From Actinomycetota bacterium (lineage in GTDB: Bacteria; Actinomycetota; Thermoleophilia; RBG-16-64-13), in NCBI GenBank assembly GCA_012729575.1, contig JAAYCW010000201.1:981-64980 (forward strand): a stretch of DNA of 64,000 nucleotides, read 5' to 3'. The translations under genes were made by a program, and so were the position numbers. The notes beneath the pieces are model-generated. The model searched no databases. It saw only the letters and a list, made by a program, of their open reading frames with translations, and was not told the origin of the DNA. Of this stretch, positions 7,448 through 60,432 are shown piece by piece; positions within the stretch are counted from its first letter, which is position 1, and each line of letters begins with the position of its first letter.

Positions 7448-8175
7448 TGCCTGACATCAAGTTTCGCGTGAAGCGACAGGACCCGGGCGATAAGAAGAAC
7501 CCTGAGGCGCATTGGGAGGAGTACATCGTCCACTATGAGGGCGACAACCTGACCGTCCTCGAGGGTCTCTTCTACATCCAGGAGAAGTATGACGGAGGCT
7601 TGTCATTCCGGTACTGCTGCCGCGCGTCGATCTGCGGTAGCTGCGGTATGTACATAAACGGAGCGTACCGGTTGGCCTGCCAGACCAACGTCAAGCACCT
7701 CGACACTGATTTGATCACGGTAGCGCCGATGCCCCATCTGCCCCTGGTGAAGGACTTGGTAGTCGATATGGACGAGTTCTTCGCCAAATACGAGTACATA
7801 ATGCCGTGGCTCATCCGGCACTCCTCCGATCCTGAGAAGGAGTTGATCCAGTCACCCAAAGAACGCAAGAAGATCGACATGCCCGTCGACTGCATTCTCT
7901 GCGGGTGCTGCTATTCGAGCTGCCCGTCCGCTTGGGGTGAGGACAATTACCTGGGCCCCGCTGCACTGCTCAAGGCTCATCGCTTCGAGGTCGACTCGCG
8001 CGACGAGGGCGGTAAGGAGCGGATAGCACGTTGGAACAACGAGCGCGGCGTCTACCGGTGCCATACCATCATGAACTGCGTCGAGGCCTGCCCCAAGGAA
8101 CTCAACCCGACTGAGGGTATCCAGTGGCTCAAGAGGGCGGCGGTGCGGAGGAAGCTGCTCGGCAAAGCGAAGTAG
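7447..8175 (+). CDS. sdhB: succinate dehydrogenase iron-sulfur subunit
   Basis: 2Fe-2S ligands CCRASICGSC, 4Fe-4S CILCGCCYSSCP and 3Fe-4S CHTIMNCVEACP clusters. ATGA overlap with sdhA. Confidence 0.95.
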   Translation: MPDIKFRVKRQDPGDKKNPEAHWEEYIVHYEGDNLTVLEGLFYIQEKYDGGLSFRYCCRASICGSCGMYINGAYRLACQTNVKHLDTDLITVAPMPHLPLVKDLVVDMDEFFAKYEYIMPWLIRHSSDPEKELIQSPKERKKIDMPVDCILCGCCYSSCPSAWGEDNYLGPAALLKAHRFEVDSRDEGGKERIARWNNERGVYRCHTIMNCVEACPKELNPTEGIQWLKRAAVRRKLLGKAK

Positions 8176-8194: not shown

Positions 8195-8240
8195 GAGTCC
8201 TCCGGAGTCCCTATGACGTTGGCGGGACTCCGTAGGACTC
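8195..8240. terminator. 17-bp imperfect inverted repeat hairpin at the convergent sdhB / FAD-oxidase junction; no U-tract
   Basis: GAGTCCTCCGGAGTCCC ... GGGACTCCGTAGGACTC with one mismatch and a 12-nt loop. Located between two convergent gene ends. Confidence 0.3.
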
Positions 8241-11200: not shown

Positions 11201-11312
11201 GGCTCAGCCCGGCGTCGGTCGCATAAAGCCAGCGGCTGATAGGATCGAACTCGACATCTCCACGGATCATGGAGCGCAGGTCGCGTGCAACAGTATCGCG
11301 AAAGTCGGTCAT
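8211..11312 (-). CDS. FAD-binding oxidase fused to a Cys-rich Fe-S domain (GlcD-like plus GlcF/CCG-like; D-lactate/glycolate dehydrogenase family)
   Basis: N-terminal FAD-binding PCMH-type domain (GMGSGLNGAAVGAGIQVD, ENHCSLGGMIGTNASG). Central 4Fe-4S ferredoxin motifs (CHGCALCKSAVSTTMCP, CIECGMCAVECP). C-terminal CCG cysteine-rich domains. 1033 aa. Confidence 0.85.
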   Translation of the reverse strand: MTDFRDTVARDLRSMIRGDVEFDPISRWLYATDAGLSQIEPLGVVSPRDAHDVLRLVSYAAERRIALVARGMGSGLNGAAVGAGIQVDFTRYMHSILEVAPDASWVRVQPGVVMASLNHYLRQFDVFFAPDPSSENHCSLGGMIGTNASGARSVAYGATKDHVLALDVAMADGSLFHARPLELDSDPLTDLLTSDTAAGRAFAAVLPELRAAQDMIHGAMPQVVKNSCGYRVEAVLADDARSAATAGPADPGRAVSVPALAQLQRLFVGAEGTLGLVTEATLNLVPLPAKRGIAMAYFPSVFASGEAVPGILALAPTAVEIMDSRFLSLVRKHDSRVDVMLPDQTDTALLIEFEGKDTDELDEKFSDLRRHLDGTGALQLVRATTAEQTVHLWKVRKSAVALMQRMPGGRQPLPFIEDITVHPTALPACVAFLQKLFDREGVDAVMVGHAGDGNLHTRPVLDPKSPEDARVMQRIYDEVSEYVLGVRGTMSGEHGDGLVHTPRLREMYGSAVYDLFERIKEAFDPEDLMNPGKKVGPQESGGTLFRDVRYGPAYRTLPQSPLLHFSARGYESEIERCHGCALCKSAVSTTMCPVYKATHREHASPRAKANVLRAIITGVLDPDSAYGQAATKAVTDYCIECGMCAVECPSNVNIPKLMLEAKSRYRAEHRAYPPEVVLSYAETVSRLGRHTARLTNPLLNNRPLRRMAEPLLRIDRRRPMATFAPKSFDQMLRARADGAAPSSSTQPGISDSDVGRSGTTRALAGGSVVYFYDLFANYNDPGLALLVERVLQAHGLDVIIPGQRPSGIPEMLYGYANKARDVVKHNINSVLPHIKAGALLISAEPTATFAFKVHYPDYWKSPECSLVANATRDLGEFLVRERADHPEARPPAGPIRQRSRKATSATASSTISPADKPPESRPLRIGYHQPCHLKAQQIGNPAMELLREIPGIEVIDLAAGCCGMAGTFGMKTDTYELSMQVGAPLFERIAQTAPDILASECSTCRMQLAHATGTETVHPIELLAESYGVPPTS

Positions 11313-40749: not shown

Positions 40750-41928
40750 ATGGAATCTTGGCACGGCCACTTACTGAAAGAACGAGTCGATCAGAGCAGT
40801 CTGCTGATCCAGGGCAATCGTGCCTGCGTGTTGGGCGCCCTTGACGCCGGAGTCCGGTTCTACGCGGGGTATCCGATAACTCCCAGTTCGGAGATCATGG
40901 AAGCCATGGCCGTCGAACTGCCGCGGATCGGGGGCGTTTTCGTACAGATGGAGGATGAGATCGCCTCCATATGTGCGTGCATCGGCGCCTCTCTCACCGG
41001 CGAGGTCGCGATGACCGCCACCTCCGGCCCGGGTTTCTCTCTGATGCAGGAGGCTCTCGGGTACGCGATCATGGTGCAGGCTCCGCTGGTTGTTGTTGAC
41101 GTTATGCGGTCGGGGCCTTCTACCGGCCGGCCCACCGCTCCCTCGCAGGCCGACGTGATGCAGGCGCGTTGGGGTACGCACGGCGATCATCCGGCCATCG
41201 TGCTTGCAGCATCGAATGTGGCGGATATGTACCGGCTCACAATGGCCGCGGTTCGTTTCGCCCTACGATTCCGGACGCCTGTAACGCTGTTGGCCGACCA
41301 GGTAGTCGGCCAGATGCGCGAGAGTTTTTCGGAGGAGCTTCTTGGTCGCTACCGTCTGACCAGCGGTGATTTCGATTTCACGCCTGGGTACCTTCATCCT
41401 GATCTGGCCCGAGAGGTACATCTGCCGCACGTTCTGGGTTCTGGAGAGTATCCGCACGTGACCGGGCTGTTTCACGACGAGACCGGGTTCCCAACGAATG
41501 ATCCGGAGAAGACCGACAAGTTCTTGCGTGAGCTTTACAACAAGGTAGCTCACCACCGAGACGAGCTCTGCCTCTACGATGTCAAGAACGAGGGCAGGGG
41601 TCGGGTGTGTATCGTGGCCTACGGTTCCTGCGCTCGGAGCGCTCGGGCGGCATGGAGGCTGGCCGATCAGGAAGGGTTGTCGGTCGAGGTTCTCCACCTG
41701 TACACGTTGTTCCCGTTGCCTGTGGAGATCGTTCAGAAGGTCGCTCGACGGGTGGAATTTATGATCATCCCCGAACTCAACCTGGGCCAGTACGCTCACG
41801 AGGTCCGCAAGATGGCCGAGCAGTGGACCACGGTCATCGGCATTGGCAAGACCGACGGCACTCTCATCACCCCACGCGAGATCCTCGATCGGATTGCCGA
41901 GCTGGTCGGTAAGTACGAAAGCGTGTAA
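40750..41928 (+). CDS. korA: 2-oxoacid:ferredoxin oxidoreductase alpha subunit
   Basis: OFOR alpha N-terminus LIQGNRACVLGALDAGVRFYAGYPITPSSEI. 392 aa. Confidence 0.85.
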   Translation: MESWHGHLLKERVDQSSLLIQGNRACVLGALDAGVRFYAGYPITPSSEIMEAMAVELPRIGGVFVQMEDEIASICACIGASLTGEVAMTATSGPGFSLMQEALGYAIMVQAPLVVVDVMRSGPSTGRPTAPSQADVMQARWGTHGDHPAIVLAASNVADMYRLTMAAVRFALRFRTPVTLLADQVVGQMRESFSEELLGRYRLTSGDFDFTPGYLHPDLAREVHLPHVLGSGEYPHVTGLFHDETGFPTNDPEKTDKFLRELYNKVAHHRDELCLYDVKNEGRGRVCIVAYGSCARSARAAWRLADQEGLSVEVLHLYTLFPLPVEIVQKVARRVEFMIIPELNLGQYAHEVRKMAEQWTTVIGIGKTDGTLITPREILDRIAELVGKYESV

Positions 41929-41931
41929 TCG

Positions 41932-42786
41932 ATGGCGCTTGAGATAGAACAGTTCCTTCGGACAGATCGGTTGCCCCATATCTGGTGTCCGGGATGCGGG
42001 TTGGGCATTATCACCGGCGCCTTTTTGCGGGCGATCCTGGATCTGGGTCTCACTCGGGAGAACACTGTGGTGGTGAGTGGGATCGGCTGCTCGAGCCGAG
42101 CGGCCGGTTATCTGAATCTGAACACGGTACACACCATCCACGGCCGGGCGCTTCCGGTTGCCACCGGCATCAAGATGGCCCGTCCTGACTTCACTGTGAT
42201 TGTGCTGACCGGTGACGGCGATGGCGCAGCCATCGGGGGTAACCATCTGATTCACTCCTGCCGGCGCAACATCGATCTCACCTGCATCCTCTTCAACAAC
42301 CAGATCTACGGCATGACCGGCGGCCAGTTCTCGCCGACCATGGATCCGGGGGGTAACGCGACGACCGCTCCCTATGGCCAACTGGAGCCTTCGTTCGACT
42401 TGTGCCGTTTGGCTGAAGCGGCGGGCGCCACTTTCGTGGCGCGAGGCACCGCGGCCGGCGTTCGCCAGATTGAGAAGATCATCAAGCAGGGCGTCCAACA
42501 TCCGGGATTCGCCTTCATCGAGGCCGTGGTTCCTTGTCCCACTGAATATGGGAGACGCAACAAACCGGCGAAAGCCGTGGACATGCTCGAAGAGGAACGG
42601 AAACGGTCGATATCTGTGAGTAAGGCGGCCAAGTTGTCGCCCGAGGAACTCGAGGGCAAGATCGTGACCGGAGTGCTCTTCCAGGATGTCGAGAGGCGTG
42701 AGTTCCAGAGCACTTACGCAGAGACCGTGGCTCGCGTGAAAGACGCCGAACTGGCGCGACGGTTGGCGGAAGGGGCCGGAGAATGA
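41932..42786 (+). CDS. korB: 2-oxoacid:ferredoxin oxidoreductase beta subunit (TPP-binding)
   Basis: WCPGCG near the N-terminus. TPP motif GDGDGAAIGGNHLIH. Confidence 0.85.
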   Translation: MALEIEQFLRTDRLPHIWCPGCGLGIITGAFLRAILDLGLTRENTVVVSGIGCSSRAAGYLNLNTVHTIHGRALPVATGIKMARPDFTVIVLTGDGDGAAIGGNHLIHSCRRNIDLTCILFNNQIYGMTGGQFSPTMDPGGNATTAPYGQLEPSFDLCRLAEAAGATFVARGTAAGVRQIEKIIKQGVQHPGFAFIEAVVPCPTEYGRRNKPAKAVDMLEEERKRSISVSKAAKLSPEELEGKIVTGVLFQDVERREFQSTYAETVARVKDAELARRLAEGAGE

Positions 42787-43463
42787 GCATGGTGGACGGA
42801 ACAACACCATCTCCGATCGGGTCTGATCAAGCCCCCACAAGTACCCCTTCATCTGCTCAATGGGAAGGGTTGCTGTTCGGCCGGGAGTATGTGGAGGTTC
42901 GGTTCGGCGGCAGCGGTGGTCAGGGAGTGATACTCATGGGTGTGATCCTGGCGACGGCAGCCACGCTCGACCATCATCGCGTTGTGCAGACGGAATCGTA
43001 TGGACCTGAAGCCCGGGGAGGATATAGCCGCAGCGACGTGATCATCTCCAGTGAACCAGTGGACTACCCTGAACTGGAAAGGGCCCATCTCTTGGTGGCT
43101 CTCTCCCAGTTGGCAGCGTCGCAGTACATCGGCACTCTGCGCAATGACGGTATCTTCATATACGATTTAGAGAAAGTCGTTGAGCCCCCGGTCTTCAAGG
43201 GGATCACTTTCGCTATCCCCTTCACCGAGATGGCCCTAGAGGAGACCGGTAGGACGCAGACGACGAACATCCTGGCACTGGGAGCGGTGACGAGTATCAC
43301 CGGACTCGTATCTGTGGAGTCACTGCGGAAAGCGGTGACGGGCAGAGTACCGGCCGGCACTGAGGAGATCAACAACCGAGCGCTGATCCGGGGCCTGGGT
43401 ATCGACCCTGCGGAGTGGCAGAACGGCGGCGCCAGGGCCTACGGCTTGCCGGTAGATCGGTAG
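42783..43463 (+). CDS. 2-oxoacid:ferredoxin oxidoreductase gamma subunit
   Basis: POR/KOR gamma-family sequence (GSGGQGVILMGVILATAA). 4-bp overlap with korB. Confidence 0.75.
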   Translation: MSMVDGTTPSPIGSDQAPTSTPSSAQWEGLLFGREYVEVRFGGSGGQGVILMGVILATAATLDHHRVVQTESYGPEARGGYSRSDVIISSEPVDYPELERAHLLVALSQLAASQYIGTLRNDGIFIYDLEKVVEPPVFKGITFAIPFTEMALEETGRTQTTNILALGAVTSITGLVSVESLRKAVTGRVPAGTEEINNRALIRGLGIDPAEWQNGGARAYGLPVDR

Positions 43464-43472
43464 GGTATACGT

Positions 43473-45311
43473 ATGCTTGTAGCCGGCATCGATGTTGGGG
43501 CTAAGAACGTCCACGCAGTCCTGATCAAGGACGGGGATGTAGTTGCCAGAGCGGAGGTCGCCTCCGGTTTTGACCACGACGAGTCGGCGGAGCGAGGCTT
43601 GCGGGAGGCGGTCCGACTTGCCGGCGTCACGTGGGAAGACATCGATTCGGTGGCCGTCACCGGCGCTGGTCGCAAAGCGCTTGCCTATGCCGCAGAAAAG
43701 CCTACTGAGATAGCAGCTGATGCACGGGGAGCCTTCGCTCTCTTTCCAGAGGCTCGTACTGTCGTCGATGTGGGGGCTGATGAAGCGAGGGCCATCCGAT
43801 TGGAGCCCGGCGGCAAGGTGGTCGATTTTGCGGTCAACGAGAAATGTGCAGCGGGAGCGGGCGCTTTTGTGGAGGCCATGAGCCGGGCGACCGAGATGTC
43901 GCTGGAGGATTTTGCCGAGGCGTCCCTCCACTCCACCGAGACCATACCTATGAACGCCCAGTGTACGGTGTTCGCGGAGTCGGAGGTGGTGAGTCTCATC
44001 CATGCGAACACGCCCTCGACGAACATCGCGCGGGCTGTTCATGATGCCATGGCCAGCCGAGTGTCAGCCATGGTCCGGCGCATCGGCGTAGAAGATCCAG
44101 TAGTCCTAGGTGGTGGGACAGCTCTCAACGTGGGATTCGTCAACTCCCTGTCGGAGGCTCTTGGCGGAGTGCATATTCACGTACTGCCGGATCCGGGCTT
44201 CCTTGGGGCCCTTGGGGCTGGGCTCATCGCTTGGGAATCGGCACAAAATCCAGAGCGTTCTCAGCCCGACCGACCCCCGAGGCCACAAAGCTCACAACGC
44301 GGCACTGCTACCGCAAGAGACGGGGCGGTTCTCGCAGACGGACTCGTTGAAAGAGAAACGGCTGGAGAGAGAGACTTCTGGCGATGGAGCGAGAGGTCTT
44401 GGTTCGATGGCGATTTGGACCCGCAAGAAATATCGGTCTTGACCGTAGGAGTGGATGTGGGGTCGGTCAGCTCCCAGGCCGTCATCCTCGGGGATGGGAG
44501 ACTGCTTTCGTACTTCTCCACTCGTACCGGCTCGTCCAGCCCGGATAGCGCCGTGAAGGCGTTCCGGGGGGCGAGCGAACCCTTAGGGATCACTCTGGAC
44601 GATGTGAGCTATGCGGTTGGTACCGGATACGGGCGTGTCAACGTGCCTTTCGCGGATCGCACCCTCACGGAGATAGCGTGCCATGCCCGCGGAGCCAATT
44701 TCATGGCCGGTCCCAGTGTCCGTACCATACTTGACATGGGAGGGCAGGACTGCAAGGTGATCCGCTGTGATGAGCGGGGCAAGGTGCTCAACTTCATCAT
44801 GAACGACAAGTGTGCAGCGGGGACCGGCAGAGGTATGGAGGTCATCGCCGATGTTCTGGGAGTCCCTGTAGAGGATATTGGGCGCCGCTCTTTCGAGACA
44901 GACGAAGAACCACCCCCGGTCAGCAATGTGTGTGTAGTGTTCGCGAAATCAGAAGCTACTTCCCTGCTCAGGGCGGGGTGGAGCGTGAATCGTGTGCTCG
45001 CAGCTTATTGCGCCGCCATGGCGCAGCGCGTGGCCGGGCTTATAGAGCGTATGCAGGTGGAGCGAGAGTTCTTCATCACGGGTGGGATCGCCAAGAATAT
45101 CGGAGTGACCCGTCGTATAGAACGGTTGATCGGTGTGGAAGCCCTGAAGCTCCCAGAGGATTCGATGCTCGACCCGCAGATGGCGGGAGCCTTGGGTGCG
45201 GCGCTTTTCGCTCATTCGCTGTCTCGCAAAGCAGAGAGAGAAAGAAGTACCGGCGTAGCGGCGCCCCGTAAGGCGACGGCTGCTGACGCCAAGGTGACTC
45301 CAGCTGAGTAG
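43473..45311 (+). CDS. tandem-domain BadF/BadG/BcrA/BcrD(HgdC)-type ATPase (CoA-substrate-specific enzyme activase family)
   Basis: Two ASKHA/activase domains, each carrying the NEKCAAGAG / NDKCAAGTGRGMEV Cys motif. N-terminal GIDVGAKNVHAV and second-domain VGVDVGSVSSQAV phosphate-1 loops. Confidence 0.75.
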   Translation: MLVAGIDVGAKNVHAVLIKDGDVVARAEVASGFDHDESAERGLREAVRLAGVTWEDIDSVAVTGAGRKALAYAAEKPTEIAADARGAFALFPEARTVVDVGADEARAIRLEPGGKVVDFAVNEKCAAGAGAFVEAMSRATEMSLEDFAEASLHSTETIPMNAQCTVFAESEVVSLIHANTPSTNIARAVHDAMASRVSAMVRRIGVEDPVVLGGGTALNVGFVNSLSEALGGVHIHVLPDPGFLGALGAGLIAWESAQNPERSQPDRPPRPQSSQRGTATARDGAVLADGLVERETAGERDFWRWSERSWFDGDLDPQEISVLTVGVDVGSVSSQAVILGDGRLLSYFSTRTGSSSPDSAVKAFRGASEPLGITLDDVSYAVGTGYGRVNVPFADRTLTEIACHARGANFMAGPSVRTILDMGGQDCKVIRCDERGKVLNFIMNDKCAAGTGRGMEVIADVLGVPVEDIGRRSFETDEEPPPVSNVCVVFAKSEATSLLRAGWSVNRVLAAYCAAMAQRVAGLIERMQVEREFFITGGIAKNIGVTRRIERLIGVEALKLPEDSMLDPQMAGALGAALFAHSLSRKAERERSTGVAAPRKATAADAKVTPAE

Positions 45312-45319
45312 TAGGCCCG

Positions 45320-45613
45320 ATGATAGCGAATTACGGATACGAGGATGGATCCGGCTTCTATTACATCACCATCGATGGTGATGTCTGTGCCGAGTGTGAG
45401 CACCACGGGTGTGTCACCGCATGTCCCCAAGGCGTGTACGCAATCGAGCTGGATGACTACGATGATCTCGTCGCCGTCGTGACCGAGAACGCCAGGAAGC
45501 GCCTCCGCGAGTTGTGCTCGCCCTGCAAAGGGCAGAACGGGAGCGGAGGCATCCAGCGCATCCTCCCCTGTACGAGTGCCTGCCCGAGGGGCGCACTTCG
45601 GCACAGCTGGTAG
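45320..45613 (+). CDS. small ferredoxin-like Cys-rich protein
   Basis: Two 4Fe-4S-like motifs (CAECEHHGCVTACP and CSPC...CTSACP). 97 aa, immediately after the activase. Confidence 0.45.
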   Translation: MIANYGYEDGSGFYYITIDGDVCAECEHHGCVTACPQGVYAIELDDYDDLVAVVTENARKRLRELCSPCKGQNGSGGIQRILPCTSACPRGALRHSW

Positions 45614-45635: not shown

Positions 45636-46181
45636 ATGGATAAGGATGGCAAGGGTTCCGTCGACTGCGTGACGCTGGGTGTGCTGTCCGATACCCACGG
45701 TCATCTCCACACCGAGGTGCGAGAGGCACTGGTTGGCGTCGACCACATAGTGCACGCGGGCGATGTGGGCGGCCCTGAGGTCCTATCCGAGTTGCGGATG
45801 CTTGCGCCGGTTACGGCGGTGAGAGGCAACTGCGACCTGGATTCCTGGGCGGACGCACTGCCCGTCAGAGGTGAGTTGGAGCTAGCAGGTGTCCGCATCT
45901 TGGTCGGGCACATCGCGAATAGGCTGCGCGGCTGTCCCAACACGGACGGCTATGACCCAACTGCGGGATTCGCTGTGGTGATCACGGGTCACACTCACGT
46001 CGCGGCGCTCGAGAAGCGTGGAGGCGTGCTGTATCTCAACCCCGGCTCCGCGGGCCCGACCCGGTTCGGGCGCCCTCGCACCGTCGCCCGTGTCACTATT
46101 AGACCAGATCGCACCCACGGACCTGGACACCACCGGTACCAGGTACGCATTGATGCCGAGATCATCACGGTCTTGGACTGA
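45636..46181 (+). CDS. YfcE/MJ0936-family metallophosphoesterase
   Basis: Motifs GVLSDTHG, HAGDVGG, GHTHV. About 180 aa. Confidence 0.75.
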   Translation: MDKDGKGSVDCVTLGVLSDTHGHLHTEVREALVGVDHIVHAGDVGGPEVLSELRMLAPVTAVRGNCDLDSWADALPVRGELELAGVRILVGHIANRLRGCPNTDGYDPTAGFAVVITGHTHVAALEKRGGVLYLNPGSAGPTRFGRPRTVARVTIRPDRTHGPGHHRYQVRIDAEIITVLD

Positions 46182-47539: not shown

Positions 47540-50500
47540 TCATGGCGACGACGAGGTACGCTTCCGCATGGGTACGCAGCCAAGGAAAATGTTGCCCGTA
47601 CGGCCGTCTACCGACAGCCAGTCCCCCGCTCTTATCTCAGTGCCGGCCAAACGAGCTATTCCCGGTTGTTCCAGCACCTCCAAGGCGCGGCAATCAACAA
47701 CGGCCGTCTTACCGAGACGTTTAGCGGTGACGGCGGCGTGTGACGTGGATCCACCTCGGGCGGTGAGCAGCCCGGAGACCCTAGTGATCATAGCAATGTC
47801 CTCGGGGACTGTGTCGGGCCGTAGGAGTACGATCCTGTCCTCTGGTGCCTCCTCAATGAGGCGGTCGATTTGCTCCATATTGATGGCCACCCGGCCGCAG
47901 AAGGCCCCGCCGGCTACCCCCATCCCCACTGCGACAGGGGGTCCGTACCTGGGCGATGACACGTCGAAGAAGGGGGCGTCCGCTTGTGGCTCGTGCACCA
48001 TGGCGCGCTTCTGGAGGATGTAGAGATCGTCTCCCGAAGCCGACTCAAAGGTGAACTCTATCTCCTGAGGGTCATGCTCTCGCTTCGCCACGAGGTCACG
48101 GGCTACTTCGAGTAGTCGTCCGTAGACCTGCGGGTAGTCTTTTTCCAGTGAGTGCTCTATTCCCTGGTACGTTGGGCTACCAAGCCGCTGGGCCTCCGAG
48201 ACGGGCCACGGGAACACCAAACCCCCGACTAGGTCCTCTCCCTGGCTGCGGACGGTGAAGTCTCCGAAAAGGCGGACCTGGCTGCTGTAGGGCTCTAGTG
48301 GGTTGCGGGTGAATGTCACCCCGGACCCTGACTCGCGGCTGAGGTTTCCGAACACCATCTGTTGGACAACCACGGCCGTGCCCCATTCTGGGGCTACGCC
48401 CAAGTATCGACGGTACAGCCTGGCTTCAGGCGAATCCCATGAATCGAGGACCTTCTGTACGCAGCCCACGACTTGGCGGAAGGGATCGTCCATGAACCTC
48501 ACCCCCATGTCCTTTGCCCGGGCCTTGTACGCGAAAGCCAGTTCTCGCATATGCTCAGGCGTGAAGTCGAGTTTGCGCTCAATCCCGTACCGAATCTTGA
48601 ACTCGTTCATCATGGCGTCAAAGATGTCGCGGTCGATGCCCGCGGACATGGCCCAAGACTGTAGGAATCGCCGGTACGAGTCCCAGGCCGCCCAGTCGAA
48701 GCCCTGTTTACGAGAGAGAGCCTCCGCCAGCTTGTCGTTCAACCCCACGTCGACGAAGGTCGACATGAGCCCCGGCATGGAGATCGCTGCGCCGGAACGG
48801 ATGGAGAGAGTGAGCAAACGCGCAGGGTCGCCAAGCCGGAGTCCCGTCTCCTTCTCCAGCCGGGAGATGGCCGCTCGGATTCTCTCAAGAGTGTCATCGA
48901 ATAGAGGCCGGTACTTCATCGCGGGTCGGGCGCTGAATAGCTCGGTCGCGAGGATGAAACCGCGCGGAACCTGGTGGCCGTAAGAGGCCATCTGCTTGAG
49001 TCCGAGGCCCTTAAAACCCAGCGTCATCTGGTCGTCGACACTAGGTCTGGGTTCGTGGATGGGTGAGATGAGACGCTCCGGGTCGTAGTTCATCATGCGG
49101 GTGAGAGCGTGATTGCTCAGGCGCCCGGTGAGCGTGGAGATCTGCCGAAGAGCCGCCGATACATAGCGGTCGAGAGCCTGCATACCCAGTGCCGATACCA
49201 GCACCTCGCGCAGTACCATCTCGGATACGGCATCCAGTGACATGCCGCGTATCTCGCACTGTCGGGGATCGTGCTCGAGCACGGTATGTAGCACTTGGTC
49301 ATGGCTCAAGATCGAAGTGCGGGAAAGCTCGGTCACCGATCCGACTATGAACTGGAACACATTCCTGTATTGATGGAATGTGAAGTTGTAACTGCTCAGG
49401 CCGGATTCGAGTAGACGGAGGTTCGCCGCCAAGCTCCGGGAGTCGACGCCGTCGGCGGCCAGAGCGCGAACGAACCGGTGGATCTTGGCCGCCATGCGCC
49501 GCAGCGTGTCCCGGGTGACGTAGGAGTAGGTACTGTCCGCGACCAGGTCCTCGAGGAGACGCGCTACCAGTCTTTCCACCCGGAAGGATAGTCCGAGCGC
49601 GTCGAACTTCGGTTCCGTGTAGGTGCCGTACATCGACGGGATCCCGGCTGCGATGTGGCGTTTCTGGTATATGTTCTCGACTGCCGAGGAGGGCGCGGGG
49701 TCCAGGATGATCGTCTGCAGGTTTTCGAGGACCTTGAGGGCGGCATCGAGCAGACGCTCTCGCGTGGACTCCCGGGGCCTCTTCTGCCATGCAGTGAGAG
49801 CCTTGGTGAAGGCGCTACGGGTCGCCGAGTCAAGTCGCAGATGCTGCTTTACTGCCGCTCCGACGTCAGCCGCCGACAGAGAGTACTTCTGCGCGAGCAG
49901 TTGGTGCGTGCGGACCATGAGGCTGACCCGCCTGGGCCCCTGGGAATCCGAGTCCTTGCCCGGCGGAAGTTGGGCAAGTAGTTCTTCAAGGGTCGCGACC
50001 TGCATTCTGATGAGACGATCGAGGAACGCCTCTACGTCTGGGGATGGTGTCTCCACGGCGGCGGTCTGGGGAGTCCGGCCCTCCATCCTGGCCAGTAGAC
50101 TCATCAGGACCTCGTGCGGCTCCTCGGCCCATTTCTGTTCTCTCTTCACAGCAGCCAGCGTGTTCGCCGACAAGTACGAGGCGAGCCCGGAAGGGTCGAG
50201 AGTGGCCCAGTAGGTGAGGACGGCGCGGGAAAACGCGACAAGCCGGTTGGACGACTCTGCGTGAGATTGCTTGCGGAGGAAGTGCATGAGGGTATCTTGC
50301 CGGCCGCAGATCTCGTCCAGCTCGGTCGAGACGGCCCGGAGTTCACCCTCGGCACCGACATCGTTGAAGTAGACCGGGAAGGCCCGCAGAAGTTGCTTCG
50401 CGACAAAGTAAATGGGTCGAATGTCGGCGTTGAGGAAGCGGGTCACATCCCGTTGAAAGAGGTCGGTGTCGGCGATGTAGACGCCTCCCAGGCGCAACTG

Positions 50501-51739
50501 TACGTTGAGCGCAGCCGCAAGCCTCTCGTAAAGGGCAGGGTTGGCCTCGATGATGTGCATCCAACACCTGATCTTAGGCAGGTGAAACGGGTTGACGACG
50601 GTCTCCCAGTCGTCGGTAGCGCCTTGGATGTCAGGGTACTGGAAGCGCCAGGAGAGGACGTCCTCTATCAAGTGGTCGGCTGCGGCCACGTTACCGGCTT
50701 CGCCGATGGCCACGCCGATGGCCTCATAACACAGGAAGCGCATGAGCAGGAATTGATTGTCCCGCGCTCGGAAGAACCGGGTCAGGCGGCTGAGGATCCG
50801 GTCGACATCCATGTGCCTCTCCGGCTTCATGAGCTGGCGCACGACGGCAAGCAGGTCGACCATCACTTCGTTCTGGCGATAGCCAAGAGTGTCATCCTTG
50901 AGGAAATACAGACAGACTGCGAAGCGGTCCTCGAGATTGTCGATTCGGAACACTTGGTTGATCGCTCCATCGAGGATCTCTGAGAAAGTGGGGAGCTCGG
51001 GGGACAGAAGCTCATCCGCTGCAACTGCCTCAGCTCTCTTTACTAGATCGGCCACCCTCTTGGGCGCCAGATCGGTGAAGCTGGAGGCTACAGCGTCACG
51101 GTCGGTGAGCTCGGCCTCTCCAGAAAGAGCCCACTCAGGTATGGGTAGGCGCTCGGCGACCCTTCGGTAGCCGAGGAGAAGAAGTGAACGGTAGAGCTCC
51201 GAGTAGGCGGTCGAGAGGACCGGACGCCGACCGGCGGCTTCGACAAGGCCCCGCAGCAGTGTGTCTCGCTCCAGAGCCGCAAGTGGTTGGAGCGGTACGA
51301 ATCGGGCTAGGCAGTCTGCGATATTCAGCAGAGGCTCATCGTATTCTTCCGAATGAGGACCGGTCAGGGCGGCCGTACACCAAGCGAGAAGTTGTCTCAG
51401 CAAGAGAGAAGCCTGTTGGGAGCTGAGGGGTGTGTCCAGCAGGTCCAGCATCAGTTCTGAGAGCAGAGTGAAGGCCTCGCGCCGATTCTCCGAGCGCTCG
51501 AAGTAGGTCCAATTCCTCAGCAGGATCGTCTGAAAACCATCGATCAGCAGATCCGCGTTGCGATAGCTGTGGAAGTATTCGGCCAAAGTCTCAGCCAGGG
51601 GCACGCGCACACCGTGGTATCCCTCCACCGCCTTCAGCAGGGGCTTGTAGCGATCAGGGATCACGGCCGGCTGAGCGGTCCCGGGGAGATTGGCCCTGAG
51701 AGCGTCTGAGTCGACCAGCGTTTCGATCGGGTCCATCAT
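47540..51739 (-). CDS. 1399-aa multidomain protein: ~860-aa N-terminal region of unknown function, then a PPDK/PEP-synthase-type ATP-grasp nucleotide-binding domain, then a PEP-utilising-enzyme phosphohistidine swivel domain; no PEP/pyruvate TIM barrel
   Basis: PPDK_N-like segment starts at about residue 880 (GFKGLGLKQMASYGHQVPRGFILATELF ... RSGAAISMPGLMSTFVDVGLND). Mobile His domain (LLTARGGSTSHAAVTAKRLGKTAVV) at the C-terminus. The N-terminal 860 aa are Leu/Ala-rich helical with no recognisable motif. Confidence 0.7.
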   Translation of the reverse strand: MMDPIETLVDSDALRANLPGTAQPAVIPDRYKPLLKAVEGYHGVRVPLAETLAEYFHSYRNADLLIDGFQTILLRNWTYFERSENRREAFTLLSELMLDLLDTPLSSQQASLLLRQLLAWCTAALTGPHSEEYDEPLLNIADCLARFVPLQPLAALERDTLLRGLVEAAGRRPVLSTAYSELYRSLLLLGYRRVAERLPIPEWALSGEAELTDRDAVASSFTDLAPKRVADLVKRAEAVAADELLSPELPTFSEILDGAINQVFRIDNLEDRFAVCLYFLKDDTLGYRQNEVMVDLLAVVRQLMKPERHMDVDRILSRLTRFFRARDNQFLLMRFLCYEAIGVAIGEAGNVAAADHLIEDVLSWRFQYPDIQGATDDWETVVNPFHLPKIRCWMHIIEANPALYERLAAALNVQLRLGGVYIADTDLFQRDVTRFLNADIRPIYFVAKQLLRAFPVYFNDVGAEGELRAVSTELDEICGRQDTLMHFLRKQSHAESSNRLVAFSRAVLTYWATLDPSGLASYLSANTLAAVKREQKWAEEPHEVLMSLLARMEGRTPQTAAVETPSPDVEAFLDRLIRMQVATLEELLAQLPPGKDSDSQGPRRVSLMVRTHQLLAQKYSLSAADVGAAVKQHLRLDSATRSAFTKALTAWQKRPRESTRERLLDAALKVLENLQTIILDPAPSSAVENIYQKRHIAAGIPSMYGTYTEPKFDALGLSFRVERLVARLLEDLVADSTYSYVTRDTLRRMAAKIHRFVRALAADGVDSRSLAANLRLLESGLSSYNFTFHQYRNVFQFIVGSVTELSRTSILSHDQVLHTVLEHDPRQCEIRGMSLDAVSEMVLREVLVSALGMQALDRYVSAALRQISTLTGRLSNHALTRMMNYDPERLISPIHEPRPSVDDQMTLGFKGLGLKQMASYGHQVPRGFILATELFSARPAMKYRPLFDDTLERIRAAISRLEKETGLRLGDPARLLTLSIRSGAAISMPGLMSTFVDVGLNDKLAEALSRKQGFDWAAWDSYRRFLQSWAMSAGIDRDIFDAMMNEFKIRYGIERKLDFTPEHMRELAFAYKARAKDMGVRFMDDPFRQVVGCVQKVLDSWDSPEARLYRRYLGVAPEWGTAVVVQQMVFGNLSRESGSGVTFTRNPLEPYSSQVRLFGDFTVRSQGEDLVGGLVFPWPVSEAQRLGSPTYQGIEHSLEKDYPQVYGRLLEVARDLVAKREHDPQEIEFTFESASGDDLYILQKRAMVHEPQADAPFFDVSSPRYGPPVAVGMGVAGGAFCGRVAINMEQIDRLIEEAPEDRIVLLRPDTVPEDIAMITRVSGLLTARGGSTSHAAVTAKRLGKTAVVDCRALEVLEQPGIARLAGTEIRAGDWLSVDGRTGNIFLGCVPMRKRTSSSP

Positions 51740-54273: not shown

Positions 54274-55620
54274 CTATTCCTTGCGGAGATCGATCACGTG
54301 CTGGGTCTTCCCTTCGCTTCTCTCGATAGCCCCGGGCTCCTTGAAGACTACGCCCACATTGATGCCTATGATGTCCTTCACGTTCTTCTGGATGCTTTGC
54401 TTGAGCCCGACCAAGGTCTCGTGCTCGGTGAAGGTGGTGACGTCGTCTGTTGACAGGATGCCCTCGGACACCTCCTTGTAGAGGCCGGGGGAAATCTCCA
54501 CTTGGATCTCTAGATTGTCCAAAGCCCCTTTGCGGCTGACGACCAGACGATAGTGCGGTTCCACGCGGGGGGACATGAGCAGCACCGACTCCACTTGGCT
54601 GGGGAAGACGTTGACCCCCCGGATGATGAGCATGTCGTCCGTGCGCCCGGCGATGCGATCCATGCGCGTATTTGTCCGACCACAGACGCAGGGCTCCGAA
54701 TTCAGCCTTGTGATATCGCCGGTGCGGTAGCGGATGAGCGGAAACGCTTCTTTGGTAAGCGTGGTGATGACCAGTTCGCCCCATTCGCCCTCTGGAAGGA
54801 CCTCGGCCGTGTCGGGATCGATTATTTCCGGCAGGAAATGATCTTCGTTTAGATGTAAGCCGTCCTGGGCTTCGACGCACTCGCACGATACCCCCGGACC
54901 GATGATCTCGGAGAGACCGTAGATGTCGCATGCTTTGATGTTCCACTTGCGTTCGATGTCTCTGCGCATGGCTTCAGACCAGGGTTCTGCACCGAAGACG
55001 CCCACCCTGAGAGGGAACCTGGTGACGTCCAGTTTGAGTTGCTGAGCGACATCCCACACATAGAGGGCGAAACTCGGTGTGCAGCAGAGAACGGTGGTGC
55101 CGAAGTCCTGCATGAGCATCAACTGGCGCTGCGTGTTGCTCCCCGAGATGGGGATCACTGAAGCGCCTATGAGCTCGGCGGCATAGTGCGCGCCCAGCCC
55201 TCCCGTGAACAGACCATAACCGTACGCGACTTGGACTATGTCGTCCTCGGTGGTTCCCGCGCAGGCGAGCGCCCGCGCACAGGCGTTCGCCCACATGGCT
55301 ACGTCGTTGCGCGTGTAGCCGACAGTGGTCGGCTTGCCCGTGGTGCCTGAGGAGGCGTGGATCCGGACGACTTCCTTCATCGGAGTGGCGAAGAGCCCGA
55401 ACGGATACTGGTCGCGCAGGTTGTACTTCCGGGTCATGGGCAGACGCGCGAGGTCTTCGACTCCTCGGATCTGCTCAGGCCCGATGGCGACCTTGTCAAA
55501 GAGGTCACGGTAGAATGGAACTCGATCGTAGACTCGTTTGACCAGGGCCTTCAGGCGCTCTGACTGGAGTTGCCTGAGATCCTCCCGGTTCATACACTCG
55601 TGCTCGCGATCGAAGATCAT
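54274..55620 (-). CDS. paaK: phenylacetate--CoA ligase family protein (PaaK-like adenylate-forming enzyme)
   Basis: N-terminus [23 protein letters not shown] is typical of PaaK. AMP-binding core SSGTTGKPT. 448 aa. Confidence 0.85.
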
Positions 55621-56673: not shown

Positions 56674-58482
56674 GTGATCGTGGACTTCTATCAGGGCAAG
56701 GTACTGCGGATCGATCTAACTCACGGCATCGCTCAGACCGAGCCGCTCAACCCGGAGTGGGCTGAGCGCTACATCGGCGGTAAAGGCCTGCTCCTGCGGT
56801 ACATGTGGGAGTACGTCACGCCGCGGGTCGATCCGTGGGCTCCCGAGAACCCAATCTTTCTCGTCACGGGACCTTTCGCCGGCACCAACGTCAGTACGGC
56901 CTCTCGTCTGGTAGTGGGGGCGAAGAGTCCGGTGACGGGCATCTTGGATGACAGCTATGTAGGGGGGTCGTTCGCTCCCGAGATGAAGTTCGCGGGATAC
57001 GATCTCCTCATCATCTCGGGCAAAGCTCCGGAACCTACCGTGATTTGGGTCAAAGATGGCAAGGTTGAGTTCCTGCCGGCTCGGGACAAGTACTGGGGTC
57101 TCAAGACCTCGGAAATCGAGGAGGCGTTGCGGGAAGATCTCGACGAGAACGCCAAGGTGCTTTCTATCGGGCCGGCGGGCGAGAACCTGATCCCCTGGGC
57201 GTGCTTGAGCACCGATCAGTTCCACAAAGCGGGTCGGGGGGGGCACGGAGCTTTGTTCGGCTCCAAGAACCTGAAAGCCGTCGCTATCCGTGGCACCGGG
57301 TCGGTCAGGGTCGGCGACGCACGCGGGTTTCTGGCCGATATCGAGCGGATTCACCGGGAACATGTTCTCACCGACTTCAATCTCTGGGCTAACGAGGAGG
57401 GTACTCCCGTCTTGGTCGACCCGGTGAACGGAGCGGGGGCTCTGCCCACTCGTAATTGGTCCGCAGGGAGTTTCGAAGGGATCGACGGTATCAACTCCGA
57501 TGCCTTCCAGAGCGTGAAGGTGGCTAATCGAGCGTGCTACCAGTGTGCCCTGGGGTGCCGGCAGGTCCACGTGGCAGGTGGAGTCAAGAGCGAAGGCCCC
57601 GAGTTCGAGACGATCGCCCTCTGCGGTTCCAACTGCGGGATAGGTGACCTGGAAGCCCTGATGCGCTTCAACAGTGAATGTGACGAATGGGGTTTGGACA
57701 CCATCTCCTCGGGATCGGTCGTGGGACTGGCCATGGGTATGGCCGAGGAAGGCATCGCCGATTTCGGACTGCGGTTCGGCGAGGTGGAGGCCTATGTCGC
57801 TGCACCCGCTCTGATCGCACAACGGGAGGGGATCGGAGTCGAGCTCGCCTTGGGGGCACGCGCGCTGGCCTCGAAATACGGGGTACCGGATATGGCCATG
57901 GAGGTGAAGAATCTCGAACTGCCCGGGTACGATCCTCGCGGTGCTTTTGGCATGAGTATCAGCTACGCGACTTCCGACCGCGGAGGTTGCCATATGAGGG
58001 CGTATCCGATCGCGGACGAGGTGCTGGAAGGCACTCGGCCGGCGGATAGTCTGGAGGGGAAGGCGGAGCAGGTCATCAAAGGCAACGTAGCCAATGGTTT
58101 CATCGGGCAGAACTTCAGCTCGGTGAAATTTAGCGGCATCTGGTGCGATTTTTGGGCGGTCGACCCGGACCAACTGAGCCAGATGTTCAGCCATCTGTTC
58201 AAGCGGAGGTTCACTGAGGACGAAGTCATGCTCACCGGCGAGCGCATCTGGAATCTTGGGAGGTTGCTCAATCTGCGCGAGGGTGTGGAGCCCGACACTC
58301 TTCCCCGCCGGCTCTATGAGGCGGAGTACGCATTCGCCGACGGCCCATCGGCGGGAAAGGCCATTGGAGAAGAGGCGTTCAGAGAAGCTCTCCGAGAGTA
58401 CTACCGGCTGCGCGGCTGGGATGAGACGGGAAGGCCCACGGAGGAGAAGCTGGCTGAGTTGGGAGTGGACGTCCGCCTCTGA
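56674..58482 (+). CDS. aor: aldehyde:ferredoxin oxidoreductase (tungstopterin AOR family)
   Basis: AOR_N and AOR_C architecture. Conserved sequence (GGKGLLLRYMWEY, CYQCALGC, GGCHMRAYP). GTG start with a GAAGGAG Shine-Dalgarno. 602 aa. Confidence 0.9.
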   Translation: MIVDFYQGKVLRIDLTHGIAQTEPLNPEWAERYIGGKGLLLRYMWEYVTPRVDPWAPENPIFLVTGPFAGTNVSTASRLVVGAKSPVTGILDDSYVGGSFAPEMKFAGYDLLIISGKAPEPTVIWVKDGKVEFLPARDKYWGLKTSEIEEALREDLDENAKVLSIGPAGENLIPWACLSTDQFHKAGRGGHGALFGSKNLKAVAIRGTGSVRVGDARGFLADIERIHREHVLTDFNLWANEEGTPVLVDPVNGAGALPTRNWSAGSFEGIDGINSDAFQSVKVANRACYQCALGCRQVHVAGGVKSEGPEFETIALCGSNCGIGDLEALMRFNSECDEWGLDTISSGSVVGLAMGMAEEGIADFGLRFGEVEAYVAAPALIAQREGIGVELALGARALASKYGVPDMAMEVKNLELPGYDPRGAFGMSISYATSDRGGCHMRAYPIADEVLEGTRPADSLEGKAEQVIKGNVANGFIGQNFSSVKFSGIWCDFWAVDPDQLSQMFSHLFKRRFTEDEVMLTGERIWNLGRLLNLREGVEPDTLPRRLYEAEYAFADGPSAGKAIGEEAFREALREYYRLRGWDETGRPTEEKLAELGVDVRL

Positions 58483-58513
58483 GTCCCCTCGATCCACCAA
58501 GAAAGGATGCCGC

Positions 58514-58993
58514 ATGCCTTACGTGATGATAGACAACAAGAAATGCACCGGTTGCCGCATGTGCGAGTTGGCCTGCTCGGCCTGGCATGAGGGAGCGTAC
58601 CGGCCGTCTGTTGCGCGCCTTCACGTTGACGTCGAGCCCACGAGTGCCCATGTTCGGGGTCATACCTGTCTTCAGACGGCCTGCGCTAAGTGTGAGGAGG
58701 CCTGTCCTGTGGAGGCCATAGAGCGCCACCCCATCACTGTTAGGGCGGTGGGCCTGGAGCCCGTTGAGGGCTACGTCTTGAAAGTGAACGAGGATCTCTG
58801 CACCGGGTGTGGCGTCTGCTACGACGTCTGCCCGCAAGGTGTCATCCATGAGCATCCCGAGCGCAAGGTGGCCTTCAAGTGCGACCTGTGCGATGGCGAG
58901 CCCCAGTGTGTTGCTTTCTGCCAGAACCCTCACGTCTTGGCGATCGACGTGCGGCAGAGCAAGGCGGAGAAGGCGGCCGCCGCGCCCGCATAG
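58514..58993 (+). CDS. 4Fe-4S ferredoxin-domain protein (probable AOR electron partner)
   Basis: CTGCRMCELAC, CAKCEEACP, CTGCGVCYDVCP and CDLCDGEPQCVAFC cluster motifs. ATG at 58514 with a GAAAGGA Shine-Dalgarno. Confidence 0.8.
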   Translation: MPYVMIDNKKCTGCRMCELACSAWHEGAYRPSVARLHVDVEPTSAHVRGHTCLQTACAKCEEACPVEAIERHPITVRAVGLEPVEGYVLKVNEDLCTGCGVCYDVCPQGVIHEHPERKVAFKCDLCDGEPQCVAFCQNPHVLAIDVRQSKAEKAAAAPA

Positions 58994-59357: not shown

Positions 59358-59966
59358 GTGGGGAGATGCGTCATCGGTAGCAGCAGTGCGCAGCGTTTGA
59401 TTGTCGGCATCACAGGTGCGTCCGGCACGGTGTACGGGGTCCGGCTGCTCGAAGTACTTCGCGAATTGGGCGTCGAGACCCATCTTGTTATGACCCAGGC
59501 GGCGGAGCGGGTGGCCCGACTCGAAAAGGGGCTCACTGCGGCCGAGCTAAGAGCGCTGGCGGACCTCTCTTATGAAAACAGTAATATCGGAGCCCCGGTT
59601 GCTTCGGGCTCATTTCTTTCCCTCGGGATGGTGGTCGTTCCCTGTTCGATCAAGACTCTGTCCTCGATTGCTCGGTCCACCAGCGATACACTTCTGACGA
59701 GAGCCGCCGACGTCATGTTGAAGGAGAGGCGTCGGCTGATTCTGGTTGTTCGCGAAACGCCTCTCCACCTAGGGCACCTGCGGATGATGACGGACGTGAC
59801 CGAGTGCGGGGCGGTGGTGCTGCCTCCCGTACCCGGCTTCTATCACGAGCCCTGCACGGTGGGTGACCTGGTCGATCACACCGTTGGCAAGATCCTCGAC
59901 CAGCTCGGGTTGGAGCACGATCTGTTCAAGCGCTGGCAAGGAGAACAGGGGACCGGCGGTGAATGA
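59358..59966 (+). CDS. ubiX: flavin prenyltransferase UbiX
   Basis: Flavoprotein fold IVGITGASG. Conserved sequence LVVRETPLHLGHL...PPVPGFY. Alternative (GTG) start. Confidence 0.85.
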   Translation: MGRCVIGSSSAQRLIVGITGASGTVYGVRLLEVLRELGVETHLVMTQAAERVARLEKGLTAAELRALADLSYENSNIGAPVASGSFLSLGMVVVPCSIKTLSSIARSTSDTLLTRAADVMLKERRRLILVVRETPLHLGHLRMMTDVTECGAVVLPPVPGFYHEPCTVGDLVDHTVGKILDQLGLEHDLFKRWQGEQGTGGE

Positions 59967-60432
59967 TGAACTGTGGGCCCGGGTGGCGGGGTATCTGGGT
60001 GCACATCACACAATGACCATCGCGACTGTTGCTCCGGGTGGGAACGTGCCCCATGCAGCGTGCGTCTTCTACGCTGTGGATGACGCCCTCCGGCTGGTGT
60101 TCCTGAGCAAGCCGGACAGCGTCCACGGGACTCACATCGGCAAGGCGGCACCCGTGGCGGTCACGGTCACGGAGACCTACGACGACTGGGAGATGATCCA
60201 GGGAGTGCAGCTCTGGGGAGAAGCGAGGCTTCTGAGTGGGGCGACGAAGGCGCGTGCGTTCACTCTTTACCTGGGCCGGTTCCCCTTCGTACGTGATTTG
60301 ATGGAACGTCCCGGCTTGACCGAGACGCTTCGGCGTATCGGGGTCTACCGAATCGTGCCTCAGAAGATAGCGTTCACCGACAATAGCACGGGGGTCTTTG
60401 GCCGAGAGATCCTCAGAACGGCTGCGGAGTGA
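59959..60432 (+). CDS. pyridoxamine 5'-phosphate oxidase-like FMN-binding split-barrel protein
   Basis: PNPOx-like fold (HHTMTIATVAPGGNVPHAACVFYAVDD). Probable GTG start overlapping the ubiX stop. The longest ORF starts at 59863, inside ubiX. Confidence 0.55.
   Translation: MNDELWARVAGYLGAHHTMTIATVAPGGNVPHAACVFYAVDDALRLVFLSKPDSVHGTHIGKAAPVAVTVTETYDDWEMIQGVQLWGEARLLSGATKARAFTLYLGRFPFVRDLMERPGLTETLRRIGVYRIVPQKIAFTDNSTGVFGREILRTAAE

Follow-up and report, generated by a model that had tools for sequence, protein, structure and literature searches.

A single-chain BzdPQ-like ATPase encoded between korABG and a small ferredoxin gene, with no client gene nearby, in a Thermoleophilia-type lineage

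We examined a 64 000-nucleotide stretch of DNA (the window; contig JAAYCW010000201.1 of assembly GCA_012729575.1) from an actinobacterium of the Thermoleophilia, in which the gene of a 612-amino-acid (aa), two-domain ATPase (43473–45311, forward strand) lies between the genes of a three-subunit 2-oxoacid:ferredoxin oxidoreductase (KorABG) and that of a 97-aa ferredoxin (45320–45613, forward strand). Our preferred reading, to which we give a probability of roughly 0.55, is that this operon encodes an electron-transfer chain running from a 2-oxoacid through KorABG and the 97-aa ferredoxin to the ATPase, which appears to be a BzdP–BzdQ-type heterodimer fused in one chain, and from there to a client enzyme encoded at an unlinked site. 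The locus was compared with 79 loci, obtained from the best 80 matches in a scan of one genome per GTDB species and annotated with profiles made from the window genes and from proteins of the HGD-D family (PF06050). Two groups of loci are distinguished here: class A, which comprises 32 loci (30 Thermoleophilia/Gaiellales-type assemblies) encoding proteins 72–90% identical to the window protein, and the S-type group (L012, L035, L071, L074, L093 and L094; 64–72% identical), which was sister to class A in a neighbour-joining tree without bootstrap.

The first-pass annotation of this DNA had described the protein as a tandem activase of the HgdC/BadF type. Its assignment to the activase family stands: Pfam PF01869 (BcrAD_BadFG) matched two stretches of the protein (345 bits), and the N- and C-terminal halves, scanned alone, scored 205.7 and 207.9 bits with the activase model TIGR00241 (cutoff 125.4), in agreement with two complete domains. 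Both domains also carry the predicted N(E/D)KCAAG(A/T)G motif (NEKCAAGAG at residues 122–130; NDKCAAGTG at residues 444–452), and each has a second-ligand motif, NAQC164TVFAESEV in the N-terminal half and SNVC487VVFAKSEA in the C-terminal half. The cysteines concerned, C125 (43845–43847) and C164 (43962–43964) in the N-terminal half (residues 1–262; 43473–44258) and C447 (44811–44813) and C487 (44931–44933) in the C-terminal half (residues 297–612; 44361–45311), align with the same-motif cysteines of HgdC (1hux), HadI (4eht) and MbdQ (9gai_D). All four were invariant in all 47 relatives examined, and the loss of a ligand cysteine, which the first-pass annotation had considered, has not occurred. 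They are the presumed ligands of a [4Fe-4S] cluster that would bridge the two halves. An AlphaFold2 model made with 42 homologues (mean pLDDT 86.9) contained two well-folded domains and a disordered linker segment (residues 273–298; 44289–44366; pLDDT < 50), and Foldseek aligned this model to HadI, MbdQ, HgdC, MbdP and DCCP-R with target-normalised TM-scores of 0.88–0.94. The fusion is real and no assembly artefact, because independent contigs from NCBI (metagenome-assembled genome GCA_034676965.1), ENA biogas-fermenter assemblies, Logan and JGI carry a gene for exactly this 612-aa protein.

The earlier description can be refined in that the protein is no generic HgdC/BadF duplication. A BzdP–BzdQ-type fusion is indicated instead by the bzdNOPQM gene order of related loci, by the consistent separation of N-half-like and C-half-like genes into distinct paralogues across loci, by motifs common to P-like subunits, and by the C-terminal half, which on its own scored 409.4 bits with the BzdQ equivalog TIGR03192 (cutoff 380.2). 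The N-terminal half exceeded the cutoff of the generic activase model only and matched no BzdP-specific model in the NCBIfam scan; it was the consistent best match of the gene preceding the BzdQ-like gene, also at loci with an HGD-D pair above the BzdN and BzdO cutoffs, and synteny and the tree thus suggest that it is orthologous to BzdP. Canonical, conserved nucleotide motifs are present in the Q-like half (DVGSVSSQ, DMGGQDCK and GGIAKN), and in the P-like half DVGAKN and DVGADE replace DxGSTxxK and DxGGQD. We considered whether these deviant ATP motifs reflect decay of the N-terminal half and rejected this, because GIDVGAKN and DVGADEARAI are common to all P-like subunits, including those of clusters passing the BzdN/O cutoffs; the deviation is thus characteristic of the subfamily. 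Where the window protein has its linker of ∼35 residues, a stop codon and a second start separate P from Q in its nearest relatives (L041, L080 and L083), whose two genes overlap or sit a few bases apart. Fused versions of 570–610 aa arose in other phyla too.

As the first-pass annotation had noted, a Cys-rich ferredoxin-like protein is encoded 8 nt downstream (ATPase stop at 45311, ferredoxin start at 45320). Its eight cysteines follow the pattern CxxCxxxxCxxxCP ... CxxCx14CxxxCP, a spacing atypical for the 2x[4Fe-4S] type to which the protein presumably belongs. These cysteines, an N-terminal M(I/K)ANYGYxDGSG and a C-terminal HSW were conserved in 45 homologues encoded after a BzdQ-like gene, and in class A, sister and Bzd-type loci alike a member of this family comes after the Q-like gene, i.e. 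in the position of bzdM. The Pfam match to Fer4_9 (25.3 bits) fell below the cutoff of 27, no sequence match was found in the PDB, and the AlphaFold2 model (pLDDT 46) was unusable. A role as the delta subunit of Kor was rejected, because loci that lack Kor also have a ferredoxin of this family after the Q-like gene. In most class A, sister and Bzd-type loci the small ferredoxin is itself followed by a protein of ∼380–490 aa with a Fer2_4 (2Fe-2S) domain and 2x[4Fe-4S], resembling the N-terminus of HoxU, NuoG and [FeFe]-hydrogenase (e.g. L094:1992–3146, L071:12078–13262 and L062:10926–12395). This protein may be an alternative electron entry point for the ATPase module; it is absent from the window, L051 and L080, and we read its absence from the window lineage as a loss.

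Upstream, and likewise on the forward strand, lie korA (alpha subunit; 40750–41928; Pfam POR_N and PFOR_II), korB (beta, TPP-binding subunit; 41932–42786; TPP_enzyme_C) and korG (gamma subunit; 42783–43463, with a start placed at 42789 by gene callers; POR), so that all three subunits have the expected family domains. KorA alone passes its NCBIfam equivalog (NF006412, 464 bits versus a cutoff of 411). The top match of KorB was NF007207, the beta subunit of 2-oxoglutarate:ferredoxin oxidoreductase, at 306 bits and under the cutoff of 364, and KorG was also under its cutoff. The kor genes abut the ATPase gene as described earlier, with 9 nt between the korG stop (43463) and the ATG start of the ATPase. 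No terminator-like sites were found between korG and the gene of a YfcE/Metallophos_2 phosphoesterase (45636–46181, forward strand; Pfam and NCBIfam matches); a scan for sigma-70-like promoter sites returned none, which is uninformative for a high-GC actinobacterium. Judged from this spacing and the lack of internal terminator-like sites, korABG, the fused ATPase and the ferredoxin probably form one operon. The phosphoesterase gene is possibly its last member; class A loci and L094 of the sister group keep it downstream of their ferredoxin genes.

The kor–activase–ferredoxin synteny, whose conservation the first-pass annotation had left as a question, proved to be lineage-wide. Class A loci have the order DUF6049, citrate synthase (reverse strand), korA, korB, korG, P-like, Q-like and 97-aa ferredoxin, then usually a Fer2_4/Fer4 protein, followed by Metallophos_2 and by GAPDH, a PPDK-like protein and CNNM (all three on the reverse strand). 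The kor genes lay upstream of the P-like gene at every class A locus with upstream coverage (26/26), KorA being 84–86% identical between these related loci and the window, and korG and the P-like gene overlap or abut in relatives. Values of dN/dS were ∼0.04–0.12 for both ATPase halves, ∼0.07–0.16 for the ferredoxin and ∼0.02–0.23 for the Kor subunits; dS being saturated, these are qualitative only. In public data the ferredoxin forms at least 120 distinct 90%-identity clusters (73–99% identity). Purifying selection on the ATPase and the ferredoxin is strong, and the low dN/dS together with the number of ferredoxin clusters indicates that the arrangement is common and maintained.

Two class A genomes carry two tandem korA-korB-korG copies upstream of the ATPase genes (L044:4564–9982 and L046:4500–10082), both KorA copies being 84–86% identical to that of the window. 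Insertions seem to favour the site that separates the P-like from the Q-like gene. At L073:10822–11419 it holds, on the minus strand, a MazF/PemK toxin (128 aa, PF02452) and a MazE/PrlF-like antitoxin (78 aa); spacers of 0.7–0.85 kb also occur in L054, L057 and L061, of which at least that of L054 has conserved sequence in common with the L073 MazEF spacer, and one of ∼0.45 kb in L042. Cassettes of 5–6 kb separate intact P-like and Q-like genes at L062:5107–9886 and L055:4004–10009, as well as in L047, L069 and L070. They encode NTP_transf_5, Wzz/GNVR-ParA-like (tyrosine-kinase-like) and small Pfam-less proteins, and in L055 a GNAT/S24-like protein; as none of this is HGD-D, we rejected the cassettes as hidden clients.

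The expected partner of such an ATPase is a protein of the HGD-D family, and we searched the window for members of this family in three ways: by tblastn with eight HGD-D proteins of three subtypes, with a hidden Markov model built from 66 HGD-D sequences against all open reading frames (ORFs) of ≥ 50 aa, and by Pfam scans of ∼50 ORFs. No HGD-D homologue was found by any of them, i.e. none in the 43 kb upstream or the 18 kb downstream of the ATPase, which bears out the earlier observation that dehydratase/reductase catalytic subunits are missing nearby and leaves no canonical pair adjacent. Genes for BzdN/O, dienoyl-CoA hydratase and ring hydrolase were likewise not found in the window, and BzdN/BzdO were absent from all class A loci. 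Within ∼10 kb, none of the 32 class A loci (0/32) had an HGD-D gene.

The sister lineage suggests how this state arose. S-type loci have the order P-like, Q-like, ferredoxin, Fer2_4 protein, histidine kinase, LytTR regulator, enoyl-CoA hydratase, ApbA-type reductase, acyl-CoA ligase, HGD-D, HGD-D. In L094 the HGD-D pair is followed by Metallophos_2, GAPDH, a 1399-aa PPDK-like protein and CNNM (the last three on the reverse strand), and these flanks are orthologous to those of the window (GAPDH 65%, PPDK-like 57.5% over 1386 aa, Metallophos 49% identity); the window is therefore the same chromosomal site minus a client block of ∼10 kb. L093 and L071, like L094, have the module beside an HGD-D pair at the orthologous site. 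No kor genes were found within 10 kb upstream in the S-type loci with that much sequence (L071, L012, L035 and L074), and no genome with both arrangements occurred among the best 80 matches. The S-type HGD-D proteins are nearest to HadB/HadC and far under every equivalog cutoff (101.7 and 138.9 bits versus the BzdN and BzdO cutoffs of 453.8 and 448.6). Because this Had-like pair adjoins an ApbA-type reductase, a ligase and a hydratase, the block looks like a 2-hydroxyacyl-CoA dehydratase route rather than one for ring reduction.

In other phyla, 28 of 45 loci had the order HGD-D, HGD-D, P-like, Q-like, ferredoxin, which is that of bzdNOPQM; in the one example tested, L082, the pair passes BzdN (511.7 versus 453.8) and BzdO (729.5 versus 448.6). 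Since HGD-D genes adjoin the module in most outgroup loci and in the sister group, the simplest history would be that the linkage was lost once, at the root of class A, as the module came to lie next to kor, assuming that HGD-D adjacency is ancestral. The presence of the Had-like block at the same locus in the sister lineage makes loss of that block the best explanation of the clientless state. Oxidoreductase genes of other 2-oxoacid:ferredoxin oxidoreductase (OFOR) subfamilies, with 24–37% identity to the window KorA, lie within 10 kb of the Bzd-type clusters L081, L084 and L088, and L078 has a KorG-like ORF; because these OFORs belong to unrelated subfamilies, the association of Kor with Bzd-type modules has arisen repeatedly.

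A Kor beside such a module has a known rationale, because Kor regenerates ferredoxin for class I benzoyl-CoA reductases (BCRs) (PMC9973337, PMC5736913). In these enzymes a BcrAD/BzdPQ-type dimer holds a bridging [4Fe-4S] cluster, and ATP hydrolysis pushes an electron from reduced ferredoxin into the catalytic dimer. The supply of reduced ferredoxin to the Thauera BCR by KorAB is stated in a passage of PMC9973337 that cites Doerner & Boll 2002, korAB and bzdV have been called a "BCR ferredoxin-regenerating system" (PMC5736913), and the donor ferredoxin of the Bzd-type reductase is BzdM (PMC5658619). By analogy, we propose that Kor oxidises a 2-oxoacid, probably 2-oxoglutarate, and thereby reduces the 97-aa 2x[4Fe-4S] ferredoxin, which would pass its electron to the cluster held by C125/C164 and C447/C487 between the ATPase halves. 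ATP binding and hydrolysis in the single-chain pseudo-heterodimer would then lower the potential of this cluster, so that the electron could be injected into a transiently docking catalytic partner. Most likely, this partner would be an HGD-D enzyme (a 2-hydroxyacyl-CoA dehydratase, a BCR or one of the double-cubane type) whose gene lies in another part of the genome.

Several points weigh against this chain, the first being that no client is present in the 64 kb of the window or within ∼10 kb at the 32 related loci. As a proxy for a remote client, the HGD-D of the sister lineage was used as query against the database and the best 120 matches were listed. Those with ≥ 71% identity formed 18 clusters, all from S-type loci or short contigs; the other matches listed were a group at 52–61% from low-GC organisms and distant ones from other phyla. 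None of the 120 lay on a class A contig, three of which are 1.36–1.78 Mb long. These contigs are in the database, because the ferredoxin search recovers proteins from them, so that close orthologues of the S-type client are probably missing from class A genomes; the proxy speaks to close orthologues only, as more distant HGD-D members may fall outside the best 120 listed. The 18 HGD-D clusters among the matches listed are also few beside the at least 120 ferredoxin clusters of class A. Furthermore, a client block that is missing lineage-wide from beside a retained ATPase is a pattern that re-purposing of the module would also give, and the direction of electron flow through Kor is drawn by analogy. 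Three candidates for a client in the same organism were rejected: P0165 and P0177 come from low-GC organisms (36–42% GC), and P0187 comes from unrelated samples and has its own single-domain activase.

Unlinked modules are not unusual, because both orphan P-Q modules and orphan HGD-D pairs occur. Many loci of Desulfobacteraceae, Desulfomonile and Desulfocarbo have P-Q(-ferredoxin) modules on their own, at least nine of them with ≥ 4 kb of upstream sequence and no HGD-D. The mirror image is found in low-GC organisms, where L089 and L090 have HGD-D pairs with no ATPase gene within 10 kb, and L091 and L092 have such pairs with none on their 8–9-kb contigs. The gene cluster around these pairs is conserved and contains an ApbA-type reductase, a CoA ligase, a thiolase with a DUF35-like protein, the two HGD-D genes, an enoyl-CoA hydratase, a 3-hydroxyacyl-CoA dehydrogenase, a PaaK-like ligase and an indolepyruvate:ferredoxin oxidoreductase. 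In the literature we found nothing specific on orphan BzdPQ modules or on this module in Thermoleophilia.

Among the alternatives, re-purposing of the module after loss of the dehydratase block fares best, although we consider it unlikely. Its client would lie outside the HGD-D family, being either Kor itself, which ATP could drive reductively (succinyl-CoA + CO2 -> 2-oxoglutarate) or re-activate by reduction, or some other low-potential acceptor. Such a change would fit the conserved translational coupling or abutment of korG and the P-like gene in class A, the strong purifying selection on an ATPase that has no client nearby, the apparent absence from class A of orthologues of the sister lineage's HGD-D, and a central-carbon neighbourhood that includes citrate synthase, fumarase and fumarate reductase/succinate dehydrogenase. 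On the other hand, no 2-oxoacid:ferredoxin oxidoreductase is known to require an activator. The relatives of solved structure that we found (HadI, HgdC, MbdPQ and DCCP-R) are all from systems with an HGD-D partner, more distant HGD-D members may be encoded elsewhere in class A genomes, and a Kor beside BCR modules already has a simpler, documented role as electron donor (PMC9973337, PMC5736913). In its boldest form, which we rate as rather unlikely, a widespread Thermoleophilia-type clade would have freed a BzdPQ injector and its ferredoxin from HGD-D and wired them to korABG, so that ATP drives or re-activates Kor, possibly for an ATP-assisted reductive carboxylation of succinyl-CoA, or feeds another, unrecognised class of very-low-potential acceptors.

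That the protein is the ATPase of a genuine Bzd-type BCR, with bzdNO and ring-cleavage genes elsewhere and a function in the anaerobic degradation of benzoate or other aromatics, is distinctly unlikely. The C-terminal half does pass the BzdQ equivalog (409 versus 380), NCBI and JGI label members of the cluster 'benzoyl-CoA reductase, bzd-type, subunit Q', the ferredoxin occupies the bzdM position, and genes for a PaaK-like CoA ligase and an aldehyde:ferredoxin oxidoreductase (AOR) lie 9–13 kb downstream. The nearest relatives that have a client, however, use the Had-like pair far under the BzdN/BzdO cutoffs, accompanied by ApbA-type reductase, CoA ligase and enoyl-CoA hydratase genes; the BzdN/O, dienoyl-CoA hydratase and ring-hydrolase genes were not found in the window; and the BzdQ model evidently also captures Q-like subunits of non-BCR clients. 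Names such as 'benzoyl-CoA reductase subunit Q' over-interpret, because in the sister lineage a 'BzdQ'-scoring subunit goes with the Had-like pair.

Finally, that the ATPase and ferredoxin are non-functional, decaying leftovers of a client-block deletion, as the missing block and the acceptance of MazEF and 5–6-kb cassettes in the P/Q gap of relatives might suggest, is highly improbable and largely refuted by conservation: the frames are intact, neither the ligand cysteines nor the nucleotide motifs vary among 24 class A sequences, dN/dS between deeply diverged species stays far under 1 (dS being saturated), and the ferredoxin is full-length in its at least 120 clusters.

The rest of the window holds central-metabolism and housekeeping genes, including fab and acc genes and GAPDH, with citrate synthase divergent from kor. 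A class I fumarase (3499–4967) and the A and B genes of fumarate reductase/succinate dehydrogenase (5738–8175) are adjoined by the gene of a 1033-aa fusion (8211–11312, reverse strand) of a GlcD-like FAD-linked oxidase with 4Fe-4S dicluster and CCG domains (GlcF/HdrD-like). At 47540–51739 (reverse strand) lies the gene of a 1399-aa PPDK-like protein. Its matches to PPDK_N and the PEP-utilizers mobile domain are confined to the last ∼500 residues, and the first ∼900 match nothing in Pfam or NCBIfam; the protein is kept beside GAPDH in class A and in the sister locus. Further downstream are the PaaK-like ligase (54274–55620, reverse strand), the AOR (56674–58482), a Fer4 polyferredoxin-like ORF overlapping the AOR end (58256–58993), a UbiX-type flavoprotein (59358–59966) and a PNPOx-like protein (59863–60432). 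As a group, these genes may point to a metabolism of aryl acids or aldehydes.

Injectors of this family power some of the hardest anaerobic reductions, at potentials far lower than that of ferredoxin. Normally the pathway can be told from the target of the injector; in the present case an entire clade, which is common in soil, sediment and digesters, keeps injector, ferredoxin and electron source in one conserved operon under selection, without a neighbouring target. The parts and their logic are already known from BzdPQM, KorAB–ferredoxin–BCR and HadI/HgdC. New are the single-chain P-Q form in this lineage, its joining with a three-subunit Kor in one operon, the lack of a neighbouring client throughout the lineage despite strong selection on the injector, and the use of a 'BzdQ'-scoring Q subunit with a Had-like dehydratase-type pair in the sister lineage. 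Benzoate degradation cannot be read from a 'BzdQ' annotation. Should the target merely be encoded at another site, the locus would show cleanly how a BzdPQ-type module can be shared and used in modular fashion in nature; class A genomes without any HGD-D protein would point to a new type of client.

Among known systems, the double-cubane-protein reductase DCCP-R (PDB 7yyl) shares the fold (TM 0.90) and the principle of ATP-driven electron injection. It is a more distant homodimer (114–134 bits), and its client DCCP belongs to the HGD-D family, of which no member was seen at the window locus. The top sequence and fold matches of both halves were HadI (4eht) and HgdC (1hux), at 172–200 bits and TM 0.92–0.94; their cluster-binding motifs are the same as those of the window protein, and the client of the sister lineage is Had-like. 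HadI and HgdC, activators of 2-hydroxyacyl-CoA dehydratases that act catalytically, are homodimers of one gene product, whereas the window protein consists of two diverged paralogous halves, the P-like one with altered phosphate-binding motifs, and, unlike them, has a dedicated ferredoxin and Kor. With MbdPQ of the 3-methylbenzoyl-CoA reductase MbdONPQ (PDB 9gai), both window halves aligned along their whole length (TM 0.91 for MbdQ and 0.89 for MbdP), with an identity of only ∼29–35% and a closer likeness of both to MbdQ than to MbdP. Unlike the fused window protein, MbdP and MbdQ are separate chains in a stable complex with MbdON.

The likeness to BcrABCD/KorAB of Thauera aromatica would lie in the flow of electrons, from 2-oxoglutarate via Kor and a dedicated 2x[4Fe-4S] ferredoxin to an ATP-hydrolysing module of the BcrAD type. 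The Thauera Kor presumably has two subunits, compared with three (alpha, beta and gamma) in the window. The BcrA and BcrD equivalogs are not reached here (131 versus 578 and 122 versus 313), and the catalytic BcrBC genes present in Thauera have no counterpart at the window locus. In Thauera, kor and reductase genes lie in one cluster (PMC9973337, PMC5736913), and the BCR is a permanent heterotetramer (PMC11971306). The BzdPQ module, by comparison, is thought to dock only transiently on its catalytic dimer (PMC11971306). The BzdPQ and BzdM proteins of Aromatoleum/Azoarcus sp. CIB differ from the system described here in that P and Q are joined in one polypeptide by a disordered linker of ∼35 residues in the window, where no bzdNO are present at the locus, korABG lies directly upstream and the host is an actinobacterium; the 97-aa ferredoxin is likened to BzdM by gene position, not by sequence. 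In both systems a P-like subunit, a Q-like subunit and a small ferredoxin are encoded in the same order, the Q-like half passes the BzdQ model, and two cysteines per half would be expected to hold a subunit-bridging [4Fe-4S] cluster.

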